A program made the translations under genes and the position numbers. Shown here in pieces: positions 1-53,823 of a stretch of DNA of 53,823 nt. The stretch is from a virus (Duplodnaviria > Caudoviricetes), in the IMG/VR virus record IMGVR_UViG_3300024982_000001, positions 1-53,823 of that record; one strand, written 5' to 3'. The notes beneath the pieces are model-generated. The model saw only the letters and a program-made list of their open reading frames with translations, was not told the DNA's origin and ran no database searches. Every line of letters starts with the position of its first letter. Position 1 is the first letter of the stretch.

Positions 1-509
1 AGGCTTCCGAGGTCTAAATAGCCACCCACAGTTGGGTTGAATCCTTCTGGAATTGATGTTAGGCTTCCGAGGTCTAAATAGCCACCCACAGTTGGGTTGA
101 ATCCTTCTGGAATTGATGTTAGGCTTCGCAGGTATAAATAGCCACCCACAGTTGGGTTGAATCCTTCTGGAATTGATGTTAGGCTTCGCAGGTATAAATC
201 GCCACCCACAGTTGGGTTGAATCCTTCTGGAATTGATGTTAGGCTTCGCAGGTATAAATCGCCACCCACAGTTGGGTTGAATCCTTCTGGAATTGATGTT
301 AGGCTTCCGAGGTCTAAATAGCCACCCACAGTTGGGTTGAATCCTTCTGGAATTGATGTTAGGCTTCCGAGGTATAAATAGCCACCCACAGTTGGGTTGA
401 ATCCTTCTGGAATTGATGTTAGGCTTCCGAGGTATAAATCGCCACCCACAGTTGGGTTGAATCCTTCTGGAATTGATGTTAGGCTTCCGAGGTCTAAATA
501 GCCACCCAC
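1..509. repeat. 60-bp coding tandem repeat array (8 full units plus a partial one; continues at 53690-53823)
   Basis: Perfect 60-bp periodicity with no spacers. Units differ only at unit positions 8-9, 14 and 20. The minus strand encodes TSIPEGFNPTVGG[Y/D]L[D/Y]L[G/R]SL. Confidence 0.98.
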
Positions 510-581
510 TTTTTCTACGCCAGTAAACTGTGCTTCGCTTAAGTTATATTTTTCGCAAAATTCTTTTTTTGATAGTTTCAT
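1..581 (-). CDS. N-terminal part of an LRR-like 20-aa repeat protein (wraps the origin into 53195-53823)
   Basis: ATG at 581 gives MKLSKKEFCEKYNLSEAQFTGVEKVGGYLDLGSL..., open to position 1. It is in frame with ORF 53195..53776 if the 76-bp terminal overlap is merged (about 377 aa). Absent from the ORF track. Confidence 0.88.
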   Translation of the reverse strand, partial: MKLSKKEFCEKYNLSEAQFTGVEKVGGYLDLGSLTSIPEGFNPTVGGDLYLGSLTSIPEGFNPTVGGYLYLGSLTSIPEGFNPTVGGYLDLGSLTSIPEGFNPTVGGDLYLRSLTSIPEGFNPTVGGDLYLRSLTSIPEGFNPTVGGYLYLRSLTSIPEGFNPTVGGYLDLGSLTSIPEGFNPTVGGYLDLGS

Positions 582-600
582 TTGGTTAATTATTAGTTTA

Positions 601-1338
601 TTAAAAAGGTGTTTTATTAAAATCTATTGTCATTCCGCTGACAGCTGCGCAAACATTTTTTCCTGTCAATTCTGATACTTCTTTTACAAATTGTACTTCG
701 TTTGAATTGGTATCTGATAAGTGAATCAGAACAATATTGTTGACTTTTGACAAGTCATTTGCAGACAGCATATCCTTGCAGTTTTCCAAAGAGAAATGCG
801 ATTGCAGGATCCTGTTTCTCAAAAATTCCTTTGCGCTGTCAGGACCATACTTTCTGTCGATGATTGCCTTTGAAAAGTTCGCTTCAATGATGATGTTTGT
901 TAATCCAGGAAAGGTGTATTTACAATAGTAGGTGTCAGTAACAAAAAGTGTTTTTCCACATTCCGGGTGATCAATCAGAAAGCCTAAGCATGGAACGTCA
1001 TGCTTTACATCAAAAGGCATCACTTTAAATCCACCGATATGATGAACTTTTGTTGGCTGTAATACAATTGCATTGTGATGTACAAAAGTCTCTGTTGCCA
1101 ATAATGTTTCCTTTGAAGCAAATGTTTGAATTCCGGCATTCATTACATCCTTAATGGACTTTGCGTGGTCACCATGCGAATGTGTAACAATACAGCCAGC
1201 TACCTTTTCAAGATTGAAATCCAACGCCTTTTTGATATCGTTGAAGTTTACTCCGGCTTCAATCAACAACGCCTCATTCTCTGTTTCAAGAATGTAAGCG
1301 TTGCCAATGCTGCCTGTGGAAATTACTTTGAGTTTCAT
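601..1338 (-). CDS. MBL-fold metallo-hydrolase (probable exonuclease partner of RecT)
   Basis: HSHGDH (HxHxDH), STGSIGN and IHLS motifs. Likely start MKLKV at 1338, directly after the RecT stop. Confidence 0.85.
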   Translation of the reverse strand: MKLKVISTGSIGNAYILETENEALLIEAGVNFNDIKKALDFNLEKVAGCIVTHSHGDHAKSIKDVMNAGIQTFASKETLLATETFVHHNAIVLQPTKVHHIGGFKVMPFDVKHDVPCLGFLIDHPECGKTLFVTDTYYCKYTFPGLTNIIIEANFSKAIIDRKYGPDSAKEFLRNRILQSHFSLENCKDMLSANDLSKVNNIVLIHLSDTNSNEVQFVKEVSELTGKNVCAAVSGMTIDFNKTPF

Positions 1339-1339
1339 T

Positions 1340-2368
1340 TTAGAAACCTGGTTGAGCTTGTGGAACTTCTTCTTCGATAGTAGCAGTCGTTGCTTCAACA
1401 TTTGTGGTATTTGGTGTCTCCTCTTCTACTTCTTCAAAGGCGGTGTCTTCGGCGTTATCATTAAAATCAAGAGGTTCTTTATTAGCTTCTGCAATCACTT
1501 CATTTTGAATGATAGCATCTTTCATTTCGGTTTCTTTTTGGATTATGGCCAAGTAGTTATCATCAATTTTTTTACTGTCGATTGTGATTGCATTAAAAGC
1601 ATTTCTAGAGATAGTTTTCAATGCCATTTCTTCAAACCAGCCTTCAATTTTTTCTTTCTCACCTGTTTTTTTACCGCCTTTCCAAACATCTTTTTCTCCA
1701 CCCCAGAATTCAGCAGAAGCATAAGCGGGTTTTCTTTTTTCGATATCTTTTAATGAGAAAACTTTAAGTTTGTTTTTCTCTGGATTTTCAAAGATGTGGT
1801 ACCAAAATCCACCAACGACATCTCCGCGATTAAATTCGTCAGTAACTTCAAAAGTGTAGCTTTCAACAGGATTGTTTATGTCTTTTTTGAACTGCTTGAA
1901 TTTGTCAGTTGAGTAAACTAATTCTACAACAATGTCCATAGGAACTTCCAATCCGTATTTTTTAGCTTTCAATTCCATACCTCTGTATCCAATAACAAAT
2001 CCCATATCGTATTTGTTATTAGCGGTATTTTTATAAGGAATCATATTGATGTGGTTCGGCTGTGTTGGGTCAAGTTCTACACTTGAATAAGCAATCACAT
2101 CAACCGCTAATTTGGACATATTTACATTCTCCCAAGTAAGTGCCAATCCATCACGATACTCTTCTGATTTTGCCATTCTTTTCTTCTCGGCATCTTTCAG
2201 GGTTTGGTCAATTTTTATGAAGTAATTTTGGCAAAGCTTCTTTTGAAAAGGCGTTAAAGTTATCTCGCCATTGTTTGAAGAAAACTCTTTGATTACTGCG
2301 TTTGTGAAACGCTCACTTTGAGATTGTTTTACTTCTCCTACTGCTGTATTATTTTTATCTGCACTCAT
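1340..2368 (-). CDS. recT: RecT-family single-strand annealing recombinase
   Basis: IPYKN...IGYRG, ELVYSTDKF, W(F)EEMALKT motifs and an acidic C-terminal tail. Confidence 0.8.
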   Translation of the reverse strand: MSADKNNTAVGEVKQSQSERFTNAVIKEFSSNNGEITLTPFQKKLCQNYFIKIDQTLKDAEKKRMAKSEEYRDGLALTWENVNMSKLAVDVIAYSSVELDPTQPNHINMIPYKNTANNKYDMGFVIGYRGMELKAKKYGLEVPMDIVVELVYSTDKFKQFKKDINNPVESYTFEVTDEFNRGDVVGGFWYHIFENPEKNKLKVFSLKDIEKRKPAYASAEFWGGEKDVWKGGKKTGEKEKIEGWFEEMALKTISRNAFNAITIDSKKIDDNYLAIIQKETEMKDAIIQNEVIAEANKEPLDFNDNAEDTAFEEVEEETPNTTNVEATTATIEEEVPQAQPGF

Positions 2369-2460: not shown

Positions 2461-4488
2461 TTAAGCAGCCAATTCTTTAGATTTAACCTCTAATTGCTTG
2501 TGCATTTCAGATACTACCAATCGAACCAATTGACTATCGGTTTCAATAAGCGTGTGCACGCTCTCAGCGTTGTCGATAAATATTGGTGCTTTAACTTGGT
2601 AGAATTCACAAAGCGTGTTTATGATATCAATTCCGGCATTCATTTTTGATGCAGTATTCAAATCAGTGTAAGGAACTCCGTTAACCATAGCCACGCAAGT
2701 TTCACGAAGTCCACCGTTAATTTGTTCCTCGAACATCTTGAAGTTTACCATTTTGAATTTGTCATTAATGGTAGCTTCCAAACGGTCAATTTTCTCTTTG
2801 ATGAAGTTTTCAATTGTGAATTGGATTTTTTCAACGTCAACAATTTGTTGAGCCAATGTGCTTTCCTCTTTCTTCAATTCTGCGATACGATTATCACAGC
2901 TGTCGATTTGAGTTTTAAGATTTAACGAACCTTTGATATTGTCGATTTTATCAACTAATTCTTTTCTTTTGGTAACTAATTCGGTGTTGTCTACCGTTGG
3001 AACCTCAACCAATTGACCTTTCAAAGTTTCCAATTTCTCTTTTTTGGTTTTGTAAGTTGGATGCAAGGAAAGAACGCTTTCGTAAACCAATTCCTCTGAC
3101 GGCAAATCGGTAGCAGAAACATTGTTTAAACTTGCGATTTCGGATTTTATACGCTCAATCTCTTGGTTAGCCTCATTCATAGAGGTGTTACCATTGTTTA
3201 TTCTGGTAACAAGTCCGTCAACTTCATTTTGAAGATTTTCTTTTTCATCCGACCAGGCTTTGCCTTGCGTTGTGATGGCGGTAAGCGTTTTGTTTTTGTT
3301 AGCTTTGAAAGTTGCAATTGCTTCTTCTTTTTTAGCCTCTACATCACCTGCAGGTAAATCCTGTTTACAAGTTGGACATTGACAATCGCCATCGTTGAAA
3401 GTAAGTTCTTTGGCATTTTCAACTCCCCATTCATCACGTTTGGCTTGAATTTTTACATCAAGTGCTTTGATTTCAGCCTCAAGGGATGTTTTCTTTCCGG
3501 TTAACGTTTGAACAGCGTTTTGATATGACTTGTATTCATGGTCTTTTTCAGATAATGATTTTGTCAATGTATCTAAAGCCGAAGTATCTGGAGTTAATCT
3601 CGTTCTGGCTTCATTTCGAGCCTCAGTTTCGATGTTTTTGATTTCAATCTCAACATTATTGATGTTAATTCTTAAGCCTTTTTGAGCATCTAATTTTGAT
3701 TGAAATGCAGTGGAGGCATTTGCCAAATCACCATCAACTTTGTCAAGTTGTTTTTGGAATTCATCGCGTTCTTTCTCCAAAGCAGCGAAATCCTGTACCT
3801 CTGGTTTTTGGCGAGTTACTTCGTCGATACGTGTTGGAATTGCTTTTAAATCATCTTTGGCTTTTTTGATTGAAGCTGTGATTTGTGCTTTGTAATCCTC
3901 AAGGGTTTTGCCTTGGGTAAGATTAGCAAGTAAAGCTGTATAAGCAGGATTTCCGGCAGCGATTTCTTCATCGGATACTTCGCCTGCAATTGCAGTAAGG
4001 ATTGTTCTTTTCAACTTCCAATCTATCATATTGAAGTAGATAGGAGAGGTGATCATTTTGAAAAGCTGTTCATCCAAAATAGCATTTACCTTTTTGTTGA
4101 AATCGGTAACTAACATTGGAACATCATTCCAATAACATTCAGTAACATTCCCGGAGAATTCAGATTCAAGAGAACCTCTTTTCTTTACCCAATTCTCTTT
4201 AAGGATTCTTCGCATGGTAACAGTATCACCATCGATAGTATAGACAGCTGATACTTCGTGCTCAATCATCGGAATTACTTTTCCAGAAAAATCAAGAGTT
4301 TTGATTTCAAAATCTTTTCGGTCCAAACTATCTTTCCCGAACCATAGCCAATTTACTGCATCAGCAATTGTGGTTTTACCTGTTCCGTTGGCACCGTAGA
4401 TATCGGTTTCATTTTTAAAATCAATCTTTAGCGATTTGATGCCTTTGAAATTATTAAGAGATAAATTCTCAATTTCGATTTTTTTCAT
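2461..4488 (-). CDS. SMC/Rad50-like AAA ATPase with long coiled coil
   Basis: LNNFKGI, Walker A GANGTGKT, central CPTC zinc hook and Walker B IFIDNAE. Confidence 0.85.
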   Translation of the reverse strand: MKKIEIENLSLNNFKGIKSLKIDFKNETDIYGANGTGKTTIADAVNWLWFGKDSLDRKDFEIKTLDFSGKVIPMIEHEVSAVYTIDGDTVTMRRILKENWVKKRGSLESEFSGNVTECYWNDVPMLVTDFNKKVNAILDEQLFKMITSPIYFNMIDWKLKRTILTAIAGEVSDEEIAAGNPAYTALLANLTQGKTLEDYKAQITASIKKAKDDLKAIPTRIDEVTRQKPEVQDFAALEKERDEFQKQLDKVDGDLANASTAFQSKLDAQKGLRININNVEIEIKNIETEARNEARTRLTPDTSALDTLTKSLSEKDHEYKSYQNAVQTLTGKKTSLEAEIKALDVKIQAKRDEWGVENAKELTFNDGDCQCPTCKQDLPAGDVEAKKEEAIATFKANKNKTLTAITTQGKAWSDEKENLQNEVDGLVTRINNGNTSMNEANQEIERIKSEIASLNNVSATDLPSEELVYESVLSLHPTYKTKKEKLETLKGQLVEVPTVDNTELVTKRKELVDKIDNIKGSLNLKTQIDSCDNRIAELKKEESTLAQQIVDVEKIQFTIENFIKEKIDRLEATINDKFKMVNFKMFEEQINGGLRETCVAMVNGVPYTDLNTASKMNAGIDIINTLCEFYQVKAPIFIDNAESVHTLIETDSQLVRLVVSEMHKQLEVKSKELAA

Positions 4489-9524: not shown

Positions 9525-9571
9525 TATTGTTGAATTTTAATTTTGCCTACTCTTTAGCTTTTCGGCATCCG

Positions 9572-10309
9572 CTATTTTTTAATACTAAATATCGACTTAC
9601 TAACTCCTAAATAAATCCTAGTATCGGTATCAAAAGAAGTCTTTATCATTGTACTTTCTCCAATCTGAAAATCTAAATTTGCCTTTGCATTGAATTTATC
9701 AAATGATTTTCTCATGCCGGCTTCAAGTCCTCCCCATAATGCAAATGCAGTCTTTTTCTCTTTAGGTAGTGTAAATTCGTAATCAAGTTTTAATCTCTCT
9801 GGAGCACCTCTTGATATTCCACTTACTGTAGCATTCAAACTGAAGCCCAAAGTATCTTTTTTGAATATGTGTGAGAATTCTACAGACTTGCAATCACTGT
9901 ATAGCTTCTGAAAGTATTTGTCGTTTGTGGCTTGCGCTAAACTATCAAGTACATTATTCGCAACAATAAGGCTGTCATTTTCTGATTTGGTTAGATTGTA
10001 AAGCTTCCGGAATTTAGTCACTCCAGAACTATCGATAATAGTTTTAAAGCTATCATGAATAATTTGTAGTTCTGGCAATGGCCTTACTTCTGATGGCTTA
10101 ACTACTACAGCAGGAAATGAGCCTTTAGTAACTATAGGTTTGCTTGGTTTACTCAATAACCACCACACAAAGGAAGTTAATAGTATAGCCAATATTACTG
10201 CTAGTATAAGCGTTCTGTTGGCATCGGTTCTGTTAATTTCTGTTGTCATAGGTTTATTTTTTTCTAACCAATCGTCAATAATGTTGTTTTTTGGAAATTC
10301 CAAACTCAT
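9572..10309 (-). CDS. Membrane-anchored lysis accessory protein (spanin-like)
   Basis: N-terminal TM, a helical middle and amphipathic beta strands at the C-terminus; directly after the endolysin. Confidence 0.5.
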   Translation of the reverse strand: MSLEFPKNNIIDDWLEKNKPMTTEINRTDANRTLILAVILAILLTSFVWWLLSKPSKPIVTKGSFPAVVVKPSEVRPLPELQIIHDSFKTIIDSSGVTKFRKLYNLTKSENDSLIVANNVLDSLAQATNDKYFQKLYSDCKSVEFSHIFKKDTLGFSLNATVSGISRGAPERLKLDYEFTLPKEKKTAFALWGGLEAGMRKSFDKFNAKANLDFQIGESTMIKTSFDTDTRIYLGVSKSIFSIKK

Positions 10310-36287: not shown

Positions 36288-36472
36288 ACTTTGATTTTAA
36301 AAATTGTGCTGTCTTTCCATTAAGGCTTTCGCCATGCTGCCAGTCTTTCGGTAATTTGCTCTTATAAAATTCAACTACGAGTGTCGGCTGTTCCAAGAGC
36401 TTTGAGTCAACCATTAACCGATGCCTACATCTCAGACAAGAGAGGAGTTTATGAAGGAACAGCTTACTTTAG

Positions 36473-36545
36473 TTGCGAGGGAGGGATTCGAACCCTCGAC
36501 CTGTAGGTTATGAGCCTACCGAGCTGCCAACTGCTCTACCTCACG
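36473..36545 (-). tRNA. tRNA-Met(CAT), initiator type
   Basis: CGTGAGG TA GAGC AGTTGGCA GCTC G GTAGG CTCATAA CCTAC AGGTC GAGGG TTCGAAT CCCTC CCTCGCA A folds as a full cloverleaf with a C1xA72 mismatch and A11-U24. CCA is not encoded. Confidence 0.93.
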
Positions 36546-52244: not shown

Positions 52245-52562
52245 TTAATTTGGATTAGTGTTTATAAAATATTCTTTGTAATTCCCTTTTATTGTTTCTT
52301 TGTCTACATGAACACCATAGATATCTATCAAATCTTTCACACGTCGTCGTAAATCGCCAATTCCGTATTGGAGTAAGGCTTTCGTAGTTGTGAGCCTTTC
52401 GCCCCGCATAAACGCCCTATAAACGATTTTGCATTGTTCTGTGAAATGCTCAATATTCCCATCAAAAATTGCCTGGCTTTCTGCATTGTTTTCGTGATGA
52501 ATAAGTGGCTGTTTAAAATCAACCGGCATATTGAAATCGATAGTTGTTTGTGAAGTGTTCAT
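52245..52562 (-). CDS. Winged-HTH protein
   Basis: GERLTTTKALLQYGIGDLRRRVKDL. Confidence 0.65.
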   Translation of the reverse strand: MNTSQTTIDFNMPVDFKQPLIHHENNAESQAIFDGNIEHFTEQCKIVYRAFMRGERLTTTKALLQYGIGDLRRRVKDLIDIYGVHVDKETIKGNYKEYFINTNPN

Positions 52563-53008
52563 ACAAATTCTTGATTTTGATGTTTACTTATTTCGTTTTC
52601 TAATTGCTGTATCAATACTAAATCTGTTGGTTCTGGAAGGTATATTCCGCATTCCTGACTTGAAAAGTTCCTGAACCTACTTATGGCCAATGTCATTTCT
52701 GCTTTATCCAATGAAGCAGAACTTCTCCATCTTTCTATCCTTACCCCCGGTATCTTATTTTCAACTTCTCCATCATAAAAAAGAGTTGGATTAACGTGCT
52801 TTTTGAATATGTCAAGCTTCACTTCTGGCATTGTTAATCCAACTTCTAATCCGAACCACGTTAATATCAAGTGCATGTAGCTATTTTGAGCTATTGAGCG
52901 TCTAGGATGTTTGACCTTTAATTCAACTCTTTTCCCGTTTTTGATATAGTATTTAACCTTTTCAATGAATTGGTTTCTTTCTAATGGATTGTCGGTGCTG
53001 AAAATCAT
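52559..53008 (-). CDS. NinB/Orf-like recombination protein
   Basis: RRSIAQNSYMH...RSSASLDKAEM...GIYLPEP. Confidence 0.7.
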   Translation of the reverse strand: MIFSTDNPLERNQFIEKVKYYIKNGKRVELKVKHPRRSIAQNSYMHLILTWFGLEVGLTMPEVKLDIFKKHVNPTLFYDGEVENKIPGVRIERWRSSASLDKAEMTLAISRFRNFSSQECGIYLPEPTDLVLIQQLENEISKHQNQEFV

Positions 53009-53009
53009 T

Positions 53010-53192
53010 CTAAAAAAGTGTATCTGGAAACTTCTGTTTTAGCAACCACAAAGGCGCTTTCAATTCTTCTTTAGTTGGATTAAATTCAACCAAGCTTTTA
53101 GGGAAATGAGCTTTATCGCCTTCGCAATCCAAAAACAAACTCTTTTCAGTTTCACTTATTAAGGTGGCTTCGATGGTGTATATTTCATCCAT
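53010..53192 (-). CDS. Hypothetical protein
   Basis: ETEKSL...FPKS...PLWL pattern. Confidence 0.6.
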   Translation of the reverse strand: MDEIYTIEATLISETEKSLFLDCEGDKAHFPKSLVEFNPTKEELKAPLWLLKQKFPDTLF

Positions 53193-53194
53193 GG

Positions 53195-53823
53195 CTAGAA
53201 CTTTACTAGCTTTTTAAACCTATCAATACCATAAGCATTAGATTTCACAAGAATTGGAAGCAGTTCTTTAGCTTTAATTCCTTTTTCTATAATAATTGCT
53301 CTTTCCTTCTCATTGAATTGGCTTTGCATCCAAGAATTTACTCCTAATTCACAAGCGCCAGTCAACAATCTATAATGCTTGATTGTAATAATTGTGTCTT
53401 CTAAAATTGGTTCGCTTTTCAGTTTTTCAGCAATAAGTTTAAATCTGAAATCCTCTTTTGCTTTTTGAAGAGTTTCTCCGTGAGCGTGAGTTTTGCCGTC
53501 AGTAACTAAGTAGAATTCCTTGGTAGAATGCACTTTTCTAACCTTGTAAACATTGCCTTTTTTACTCAAGACTTCTGTAAACATTCTGTCGGCACTTACA
53601 TATTTTCCGTCTTGCCAAAACAAAAGTTTGTTTTTAGGAGTGTTTAAAAACGCATCGGCTTTTGGCTTCGTTGTTTTTGCAGTAAGTCCGCTTCGCAGGT
53701 CTAAATAGCCACCCACAGTTGGGTTGAATCCTTCTGGAATTGATGTTAGGCTTCCGAGGTCTAAATAGCCACCCACAGTTGGGTTGAATCCTTCTGGAAT
53801 TGATGTTAGGCTTCCGAGGTCTA
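53195..53823 (-). CDS. C-terminal part of the LRR-like repeat protein
   Basis: Last repeats followed by a globular domain with AHGETL...D..FK and YRLLTGAC..G motifs; open to the window end. Confidence 0.88.
   Translation of the reverse strand, partial: DLGSLTSIPEGFNPTVGGYLDLGSLTSIPEGFNPTVGGYLDLRSGLTAKTTKPKADAFLNTPKNKLLFWQDGKYVSADRMFTEVLSKKGNVYKVRKVHSTKEFYLVTDGKTHAHGETLQKAKEDFRFKLIAEKLKSEPILEDTIITIKHYRLLTGACELGVNSWMQSQFNEKERAIIIEKGIKAKELLPILVKSNAYGIDRFKKLVKF
53748..53823. repeat. 76-bp terminal direct repeat of bases 1-76 (circular assembly overlap)
   Basis: Exact match read directly from the sequence. Confidence 0.85.

Follow-up and report, generated by a model that had tools for sequence, protein, structure and literature searches.

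The stretch of DNA analysed here (hereafter the window) comprises all 53,823 nucleotides (nt) of the virus record IMGVR_UViG_3300024982_000001 (Duplodnaviria; Caudoviricetes), and the subject of this study is a minus-strand gene that encodes an array of near-identical 20-residue units, predicted to be leucine-rich repeats (LRRs), followed by a conserved C-terminal domain. The features of this gene and of its neighbours are listed in Table 1. A prediction made earlier from the window alone (hereafter the original prediction) had described positions 1-581 as an LRR-like gene whose units differ at only three sites. The gene is real and much as described there, except that 1-581 is its N-terminal part only and the remainder lies at 53195-53823. 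It is thus a single gene split by the ends of the record, with 10 or 11 repeat motifs.

Table 1. The array gene, the record ends and neighbouring genes in the window. Unit k of the array starts at 506-60(k-1); on the plus strand its variable sites lie at 500, 494 and 489/488 in unit 1 and 60 nt lower in each following unit. ORF, open reading frame; aa, amino acids.
Feature	Position	Strand	Evidence
Array gene, N-terminal frame, 193 aa	ATG 581-579, runs off position 1	minus	ORF list
Array gene, C-terminal frame, 208 aa	enters from 53821, stops at 53195	minus	ORF list
Start codon (581-579) and 25-residue N-terminal cap	507..581	minus	ORF list
Units 1-8 and first 26 nt of unit 9	1..506	minus	Tandem Repeats Finder, unit table
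Remainder of unit 9, then the partial unit of seven residues that closes the array (cassette YDR)	53693..53747	minus	ORF list, unit table
Second occurrence of positions 1-76 (76 nt), classed in the record as 'direct terminal repeat'	53748..53823		end overlap
Conserved C-terminal domain, 165 aa, and stop codon (53197-53195)	53195..53692	minus	574 representative relatives
MBL (metallo-beta-lactamase-fold) hydrolase, upstream neighbour	601..1341	minus	Pfam Lactamase_B 2.8e-08; phrog_392 3.4e-78
RecT-family single-strand annealing protein	1340..2368	minus	Pfam RecT 1.9e-10; phrog_148 9e-13
SMC/AAA_23-type ATPase, head of recombination block	2461..4488	minus	AAA_23 1.7e-07; SMC_N 2.1e-06 (below its cut-off)
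60-aa protein, downstream neighbour, no assigned function	53010..53192	minus	phrog_8580 2e-18
NinB/Orf-like recombination mediator	52559..53008	minus	phrog_72 1e-16

Tandem Repeats Finder detected the 60-bp array in two places, with 8.5 copies at 1-509 (97% matches) and 2.2 copies at 53690-53823. In IMG/VR the record is classed as carrying direct terminal repeats, and its completeness is estimated at 100. Only two overlaps, of 16 and 76 nt, exist between the record ends, and both fall within the array. When the ends are joined head-to-tail as given, the array gene is out of frame. Removal of 16 nt at the join restores the frame and yields a protein of 397 aa with eleven motifs, and removal of 76 nt yields 377 aa with ten motifs, which is the list of the original prediction. 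The 'terminal repeat' is an unresolved tandem repeat present at both contig ends, therefore there is one gene whose copy number is 10 or 11, and the 76-nt repeat marks an assembly break in the array rather than a packaging repeat. The N-terminal cap ahead of the units carries a motif shared among 124 relatives (F at -18, 77%; C at -17, 62%; T at -11, 74%; Q at -8, 81%; F at -7, 77%; G at -5, 84%). A sequence check found no hydrophobic leader or membrane segment in the array protein, in agreement with the absence of a signal peptide claimed before. An open antisense frame (157-321, plus strand) also runs through the window array. The homologue in Tetrasphaera phage TJE1 (NC_019930.1 39060-39867; 2790-3597 of related locus L002) is a single 245-aa ORF (L002 2860-3597, plus strand), and the TJE1 record annotates an opposite-strand ORF through its array (orf50) and the C-terminal part alone (orf51).

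Among the nine full units of the window, the DNA varies only in columns 7 (T/G), 13 (G/T), 18 (C/G) and 19 (G/C), so that unit residue 3 is Y or D, residue 5 is D or Y and residue 7 is G or R. The array closes with a tenth unit, which is partial and adjoins the C-terminal part. From the N to the C terminus the residue triplets (hereafter cassettes) are YDG, DYG, YYG, YDG, DYR, DYR, YYR, YDG and YDG, and then YDR in the partial unit. The variable codons are exactly the x positions of the motif xLxLx, which is one choice among the 1140 ways of picking 3 of 20 codons. Our unit table confirmed the ten triplets of the original prediction, with six of the eight possible combinations present and D-D absent from the window; its count of ten motifs is correct if the 76-nt overlap is removed and becomes eleven if 16 nt are removed. 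The absence of synonymous differences, also claimed there, applies to the rest of the units, and one such difference does exist, a Leu change (CTC/CTG) at column 18 that is strictly linked to G/R. Two further suggestions had to be given up. D-D was thought never to occur, but the relatives contain 41 D-D among 659 units against 44.5 expected, so that its lack in the window is a small-sample effect. Y-Y had been taken as a crossover product, yet the two sites are only 6 nt apart and a single point change from Y-D suffices. A higher-order pattern was visible in the window array (27-506), where the block (YD., DY., YY.) occurs twice, and in protein P0273 (DYS YDR) occurs three times, which suggests that two- or three-unit blocks may have been duplicated in these arrays. 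As a side observation, Gly units in the window always read CTC GGA and Arg units CTG CGA (for example, 486-491). The same pair recurs in L006, L035, L038 and L042 despite their different backbones, with a tally across lineages of 12 and 8 and with 2 exceptions, which read CTC CGA; it may represent either an old polymorphism that survived homogenisation or a recurrent dinucleotide swap.

The relatives show the same three positions to be hypervariable. In 136 proteins with 659 units of the window type, the within-protein mismatch was 0.64, 0.60 and 0.59 at positions 3, 5 and 7 and did not exceed 0.27 elsewhere; position 5 was D (44%) or Y (39%) in 83% of the units. At the DNA level we used 51 distinct arrays with at least three units, which gave 999 unit pairs. 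Codons 3, 5 and 7 varied in amino acid in 47, 49 and 48 of these arrays, and nonsynonymous differences were found at them in 0.75, 0.69 and 0.79 of the unit pairs, compared with at most 0.03 for purely synonymous ones. The nonsynonymous-only variation that the original prediction proposed to look for at these sites in homologues of the C-terminal domain was thus found, with almost no synonymous change beside it. At codons 12, 18 and 20 it was synonymous differences that occurred (0.33, 0.20 and 0.30), with nonsynonymous ones at no more than 0.05. Backbone identity, measured for 72 units of 16 arrays, was 0.94-1.00 within arrays (1.00 in the window) and 0.51-0.91 between them, and the nearest neighbour lay in the same array for all 72 units. 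Because backbones are homogenised array by array while codons 3, 5 and 7 differ, almost never synonymously, the pattern is, as far as it can be read from sequences, one of concerted evolution of the backbone combined with diversifying selection at three codons. The cassettes YDG, DYG, DYR and YYR recur in three to five arrays. A total of 163 different cassettes was counted in 569 units, the four commonest accounting for 21% and the ten commonest for 40%, and no order signal was detected between neighbouring rungs (|z|<=1.7), nor any coupling of the kind that a Tyr-Asp ladder would impose as a structural cause of the variation. Codon differences of a single step lay mostly at first codon positions and showed no strong bias (244 transversions, 157 transitions). 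Across 29 representatives of any repeat type that have clean repeats, the hypervariable columns (624 residues) consisted mainly of Y (18%), S (15%), D (11%) and N (10%).

Comparison of close relatives also showed differences in unit content. In four groups (L050/L053, L061/L065, L015-L063/L057 and L064/L078-L081-L083) the DNA of the C-terminal domain was at least 99% identical and the arrays differed. The clearest pair was L064 (9 units) and L078 (4 units), whose two flanks (2.1 and 3.2 kb) show identities of 99.4% and 99.3% and whose lengths are offset by exactly 300 nt, that is, five units; both are short-read assemblies. Together with the nearest neighbours found in the same array, these groups support a turnover of the arrays by gain and loss of units.

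The reality of the window array was examined by k-mer depth. Its flank was present in seventeen public runs, all of them freshwater or freshwater-sediment metagenomes of 2017 searched as contigs, and seven runs contained at least half of its words. Four runs were compared over 52559-53780 as Logan contigs, from which the composition of the array but not the order of its units can be read. In run X1 the depth was 101 for the unique flank and 968 for the 47-nt invariant spacer; among the pieces listed, it was 324 for YDG, 317 for the piece common to DYR and YYR, 189 for DYR, 138 for YYG, 91 for YYR and 83 for DYG. The ratio of spacer to flank was 9.6 in X1, 9.1 in X4 and 8.6 in X7, and X1 and X4 may be the source samples. 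These depths fit nine to ten full units at about the assembled composition. With regard to order, six (ten motifs) or twelve (eleven motifs) arrangements share the same neighbouring pairs, but cassette triples (133 nt) fit within a 150-nt read and fix a single order. An exact search with the 47-nt spacer in IMG/VR and JGI metagenome contigs found no other assembly of the window array. In 42 of 98 related loci the assembly breaks in the gene, and 27 of those 42 have a unit at the contig end. In an RNA run (X8), one contig of 344 nt covered 52812-53155 and another of 90 nt fell in the array, and carry-over of DNA is possible for both.

The LRR nature of the array was supported by several comparisons. 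The N-terminal part of the window protein matched solved LRR domains of SspH1 (4nkh, 4nkg and 9h6w; E=4.9e-6 to 3.7e-5), with weak matches to IpaH9.8 and YopM, and it was 51% identical (BLASTP E=2e-28) to the array of P0271, a protein of a Flavobacterium isolate; in this alignment 'VGGxLxL' is in register and each unit has two compensating 2-residue indels. Both P0271 and P0283 passed the Pfam LRR_1 model (24.3 and 29.7 bits, cut-off 20.6), P0283 also passed LRR_14, and the LRR_1 model places its LxLxxN strand on xLxLxxT of both proteins. In addition, P0283 matched (E=5.4e-26) the solved structure 8Z5U, which is that of FlrP from the flagellar motor of Vibrio. In the available part of its report, FlrP is described as having a beta-solenoid LRR core (bioRxiv 10.64898/2025.12.04.692373). 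In NCBIfam the window protein obtained a weak SspH2 match alone (E=0.32). The core pattern of LRRs is LxxLxLxxN/CxL. In the 659 units L4 is present in 99% and L6 in 98%, and, compared with the type B arrays of the family, the unit lacks the Asn position. Because relatives that pass LRR_1 align in the register of that model, unit residues 3, 5 and 7 would be the outward-facing residues of the LRR strand, with L4 and L6 in the core. Thus, the original assignment to the LRR type is upheld, and these matches identify the window array as a divergent LRR of 20 residues per unit with a predicted 10 or 11 rungs.

The array is fused to a constant C-terminal domain, as had been proposed, and this domain defines a large family. 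Among 1.84 billion representatives, 574 representative clusters were related to it at E<=1e-3 and 222 at 1e-10, always at the C terminus; at E<=1e-5, 548 clusters were retained among 679 candidates, every one of them hypothetical or unnamed. The domain measures about 140-165 residues across the family. In 127 aligned domains (numbered as in the 208-aa C part) H114, K128, T154 and G160 were each invariant (127/127), and D78 (122/123), Y150 (126/127) and C157 (126/127) were nearly so; these invariant (His, Lys, Thr) and near-invariant (Cys, Asp, Tyr) residues hint at either a catalytic function or a fixed site of binding. The two parts of the protein also differ in charge. The array has a net charge of -12 over 168 aa (isoelectric point (pI) 4.05) and is net negative in 113 of 122 relatives, and the C-terminal domain has a net charge of +13 (pI 9.75), the C-terminal part being net positive in 94 of 122. 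No match to the domain was found in Pfam or NCBIfam, comparison with PHROG gave only small families of no stated function, PADLOC gave 0 families at E<=0.1, its profiles A1 and A2 found no PDB sequence at E<=1 and E<=10, and the protein atlas returned unnamed viral clusters only. We considered a permuted papain-like, caspase-like, GIY-YIG or helix-turn-helix fold and dropped all four for want of a supporting result; for GIY-YIG, the Tyr residues needed are not invariant.

What precedes the domain differs widely among relatives. It may be the 20-residue unit of the window, a type B LRR, a BspA-type LRR (14 of 127 pass LRR_5), a unit of 19 or 22 residues, or a repeat of nine or eight residues, and the C-terminal domain is the sole part conserved across these repeat types. 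Almost all of these solenoids show hypervariable positions of a similar sort. Some listed relatives have little or no N-terminal part, many of them possibly truncated gene calls at contig ends, and the longer forms (51 matches, longest 413 aa) contained no informative fusion. Mapping of the N-terminal repeat class on the tree of the domain gave 55 class changes against a shuffled mean of 69.7, a count that is unreliable given that only 9 of 123 branches were well supported. In P0004 and P0090 an XRE-type helix-turn-helix or a response-regulator receiver domain lies ahead of the C-terminal domain, and these may be true fusions or run-together gene calls. Two tandem family members with different arrays and near-identical C-terminal domains were seen in L021 (1214-2395 and 2410-3495) and in L011 (2491-3450 and 3526-4140), and the second copy in L011 ends early, inside the domain. 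The only isolated phages with the domain were Tetrasphaera phage TJE1, Riemerella phages CRP5 and CRP6, Dulem virus 31 and one faecal phage record; the members in CRP5 and CRP6 are annotated 'ribonuclease inhibitor'. When 401 genomes of a single bacterial phylum were sampled, its profile was found in one, the starting genome itself. The sequences thus place this family on phages, almost wholly metagenomic ones.

The array gene lies in a replication-recombination operon. On the minus strand the order is SMC/AAA_23 ATPase, RecT, MBL hydrolase, array gene, 60-aa protein, NinB, a winged-helix protein, a protein of no assigned function and helicases, so that the gene is situated between RecT/MBL and NinB, in line with the position in the early operon given in the original prediction. 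Relatives adjoin ERF and an exonuclease (TJE1; L016), ERF (CRP6) or exonuclease VIII (L006), and other contexts differ. By terminase, the closest isolated phage is Cellulophaga phage Nekkels_1 (61% identity), and the RecT of the window has no near relative among isolated phages. Relatives were found in Kaistella, Pedobacter, Ferruginibacter and Bacteroidales assemblies. Because of these assemblies and the kinship of the terminase, the host is likely to belong to Bacteroidota. Elsewhere in the window, a DUF805b RNA (Rfam, 45.6 bits against a gathering score of 35.6) was found at 9544-9575 on the minus strand, just upstream of an ORF at 9572-10309 (minus), and a single tRNA-Met (CAT) gene at 36472-36545 (minus) between the packaging/head genes and the replication block.

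On the basis of these results, we consider it fairly probable that the gene encodes a cytoplasmic early protein that combines an acidic, rapidly evolving LRR face for recognition with a constant basic domain and is directed against a variable factor of the host or of a rival phage. In-register recombination or slippage between 60-bp units would add, remove and homogenise units, and selection would retain and renew amino-acid differences at the three positions. The variable residues, among which Y, D, S, N, R and G prevail, would be stacked in three ladders, taken to face outward by homology to the LRR_1-passing relatives, and would then form an acidic recognition surface that could change quickly between phage lineages, with the constant C-terminal domain as the working or docking part. 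The likeliest use would be the binding of a variable host or rival-phage protein early in infection, for host takeover or counter-defence. A bolder version of this idea, which we regard as rather unlikely, is that of a retargetable phage effector. Here each rung would carry a three-residue 'word', recombination between units, possibly aided by the annealing protein, would re-sort the words, and the array would aim a constant His/Cys enzyme, of a kind not described before, at changing immunity proteins of the host; the repeated coupling of the C-terminal domain to other hypervariable solenoids would make it a general platform of phages for rapidly evolving recognition.

Several points weigh against the recognition-face reading. 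No Pfam LRR family was found at E<=0.1 for the two parts of the window protein, nor at E<=0.01 for the type A relatives P0273, P0274 and P0286, and the HMMER alignment to SspH1 is in another register, with IPEG of the window on LPEG of SspH1. The placement of residues 3, 5 and 7 on one face is therefore a matter of homology to relatives. The C-terminal domain appears unlike anything known in the libraries searched, and because it is without a match in Pfam, NCBIfam, PHROG functions, PADLOC, PDB and the atlas, the word 'enzyme' is a guess from conserved residues. The strongly acidic array would fit a DNA mimic as well. In four other groups of near-identical relatives (L010/L054, L011-12-13-58, L017-84-85-86 and L018-19-92) the arrays were the same as far as they reach, and change is therefore not fast at the scale of those samples. 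The unit number and order of the window derive from a short-read assembly that broke inside the array, and the differences between near-identical phages could partly reflect collapsed assemblies. For fungal repeats, short-read assemblies have been found to yield shortened (collapsed) arrays, according to the available part of that study (PMC12222747).

Among other functions, that of a DNA mimic or decoy has to be taken into account, in which an acidic solenoid blocks host nucleases or DNA-binding defence proteins, the basic domain anchors it on DNA or on the recombination machinery, and the variable residues tune the fit. The opposite charges of the two parts in most relatives would suit such a role, as would the annealing-protein and nuclease genes beside the gene in the window, TJE1, CRP6, L016 and L006; in lambda, Gam likewise adjoins exo and bet. 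However, hypervariable triads would be superfluous in a plain mimic, every second variable residue is not acidic but Tyr, Ser, Asn, Arg or Gly, and no similarity to known mimics emerged from the PDB sequence and PADLOC searches. The main text of the EVADES preprint, supplements apart, which catalogues 268 anti-defence proteins, likewise contains no solenoid, repeat or LRR protein. We therefore think the mimic distinctly unlikely. A code for a polymer, each rung reading one unit of single-stranded DNA, RNA or a repetitive peptide in the manner of transcription activator-like effectors (TALEs) or PUF proteins, would account for near-identical units with localised variable residues and for a gene inside a recombination module, and Y, D, N, S and R are used in known nucleic-acid codes. 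The same idea has been raised for Dictyostelium LRRs with Y/D/H/N variable pairs, in the part of that paper available (Altae-Tran et al., PMC10392669). Such a code is very unlikely in our opinion, as the cassette alphabet is large, an acidic array is unfavourable for nucleic acid and neighbouring rungs carry no order signal. It is equally doubtful, and to the same high degree, that the solenoid is structural filler, that is, a spacer or oligomerisation rod whose variable positions are unconstrained. It is true that the C-terminal domain alone is conserved across repeat types and that some relatives, many of them perhaps truncated calls, nearly lack an N-terminal part. Yet homogenisation would wipe unconstrained sites as it does the synonymous sites of the backbone, whereas 69-79% of unit pairs differ at the three codons, and the prevalence of D or Y at position 5 points to choice rather than drift.

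Two further explanations concern the origin of the variation itself. The array might be an assembly artefact, a strain mixture or errors having been stitched into a mosaic of a gene that is truly uniform or has far fewer units. Both contig ends lie inside the array, the 'terminal repeat' belongs to it, many related loci break in this gene, and six or twelve orders are compatible with the same pair adjacencies. Short-read assemblies of such repeats have also been reported as unreliable, in the sections available of PMC12222747. We nevertheless find this explanation hardly credible, since the cassette depths are about whole multiples of the flank, with the spacer at 8.6-9.6 times the flank in three runs, variation falls on these three codons in 47-49 of 51 independent arrays, including that of the isolated and separately sequenced TJE1, and cassette triples contained in one read fix one order. 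Finally, programmed hypermutation, with the three codons being written by a diversity-generating retroelement or some comparable targeted process, would explain why variation is confined to few codons, and the products of such retroelements overlap the residue set Y, D, N, H, S, G and C. Its probability is negligible in our view. No reverse transcriptase (PF00078) was found in the phage record, with three control genomes positive, and the record has one array, one C-terminal domain and no template copy. Moreover, the coding strand shows T/G and C/G exchanges without adenine specificity, the ratio of transversions to transitions is near unbiased, and arrays are identical across samples in several groups.

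The combination of identical backbones with a few hypervariable codons is a hallmark of conflict recognition systems such as TALEs, lamprey receptors and the NOD-like receptors (NLRs) of fungi. If the array binds host proteins, it would open a way to new mechanisms of counter-defence or takeover used by Bacteroidota phages, supply binder design with a compact LRR scaffold of 20 residues whose variable positions are natural, and serve as a case study of how phage recombination systems shape their own genes. It should be noted that such arrays break short-read assemblies and can pose as terminal repeats; therefore, 'complete circular' calls and gene calls at such places need care.

By sequence, the closest solved structures are those of SspH1/SspH2, IpaH and YopM, which share the 20-residue unit, a conserved Leu/Ile-Pro turn motif and the layout of LRRs followed by a C-terminal working domain. 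The window protein differs in that its C-terminal domain is not the NEL ligase of IpaH/SspH (no PDB sequence at E<=10 and no Pfam family), its unit has no Asn-ladder position, and it is an early protein of a phage, whereas the others are secreted effectors. The units of those effectors are also diverged, unlike the DNA-identical units of the window. FlrP belongs to the same repeat class as the type B arrays of the family, as the match to P0283 indicates, but it is periplasmic, has a signal peptide and a positive charge and lacks such a C-terminal domain, and hypervariable units are not reported in the part of its description available. Hypervariable LRRs have been described in Flavobacterium psychrophilum and Dictyostelium purpureum, again in the portion of the paper at hand (Altae-Tran et al., 2020; PMC10392669). 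In the latter organism the hypervariable positions are dominated by Y, D, H and N, to be compared with the Y, S, D and N of the phage family; its LRRs differ in being eukaryotic and of another subtype, with two adjacent instead of three alternating variable residues and without this C-terminal domain. No phage family is mentioned in the passages of that paper that were searched, and our text searches of the literature turned up nothing comparable among the early genes of phages.

As for the logic of the system, the original prediction had compared it with lamprey variable lymphocyte receptors (VLRs) and TALEs. Lamprey VLRs are LRR binders with diversity on the beta-strand face that are assembled somatically from flanking cassettes, whereas the phage record has no donor cassettes and the diversity of the phage arrays lies between lineages. 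TALEs share near-identical tandem units that vary at a fixed few codons, but the phage array is acidic, made of LRRs instead of helical repeats, and without a small alphabet. The high-internal-conservation (HIC) repeats of fungal NLRs provide a closer analogy than either. In the available part of the report on HET-D and HET-E, concerted evolution keeps the HIC WD40 repeats of one gene 80-100% identical, diversifying selection acts on a few codons per unit, the unit number is polymorphic and short-read assemblies fail (PMC12222747). Although those repeats build a WD40 propeller and not an LRR solenoid, belong to a fungal immune receptor and not a phage early gene, and are 126 bp long as compared with 60 bp, all four traits (homogenised units, diversified codons, polymorphism of unit number and failure of short-read assembly) are also found in the phage family.

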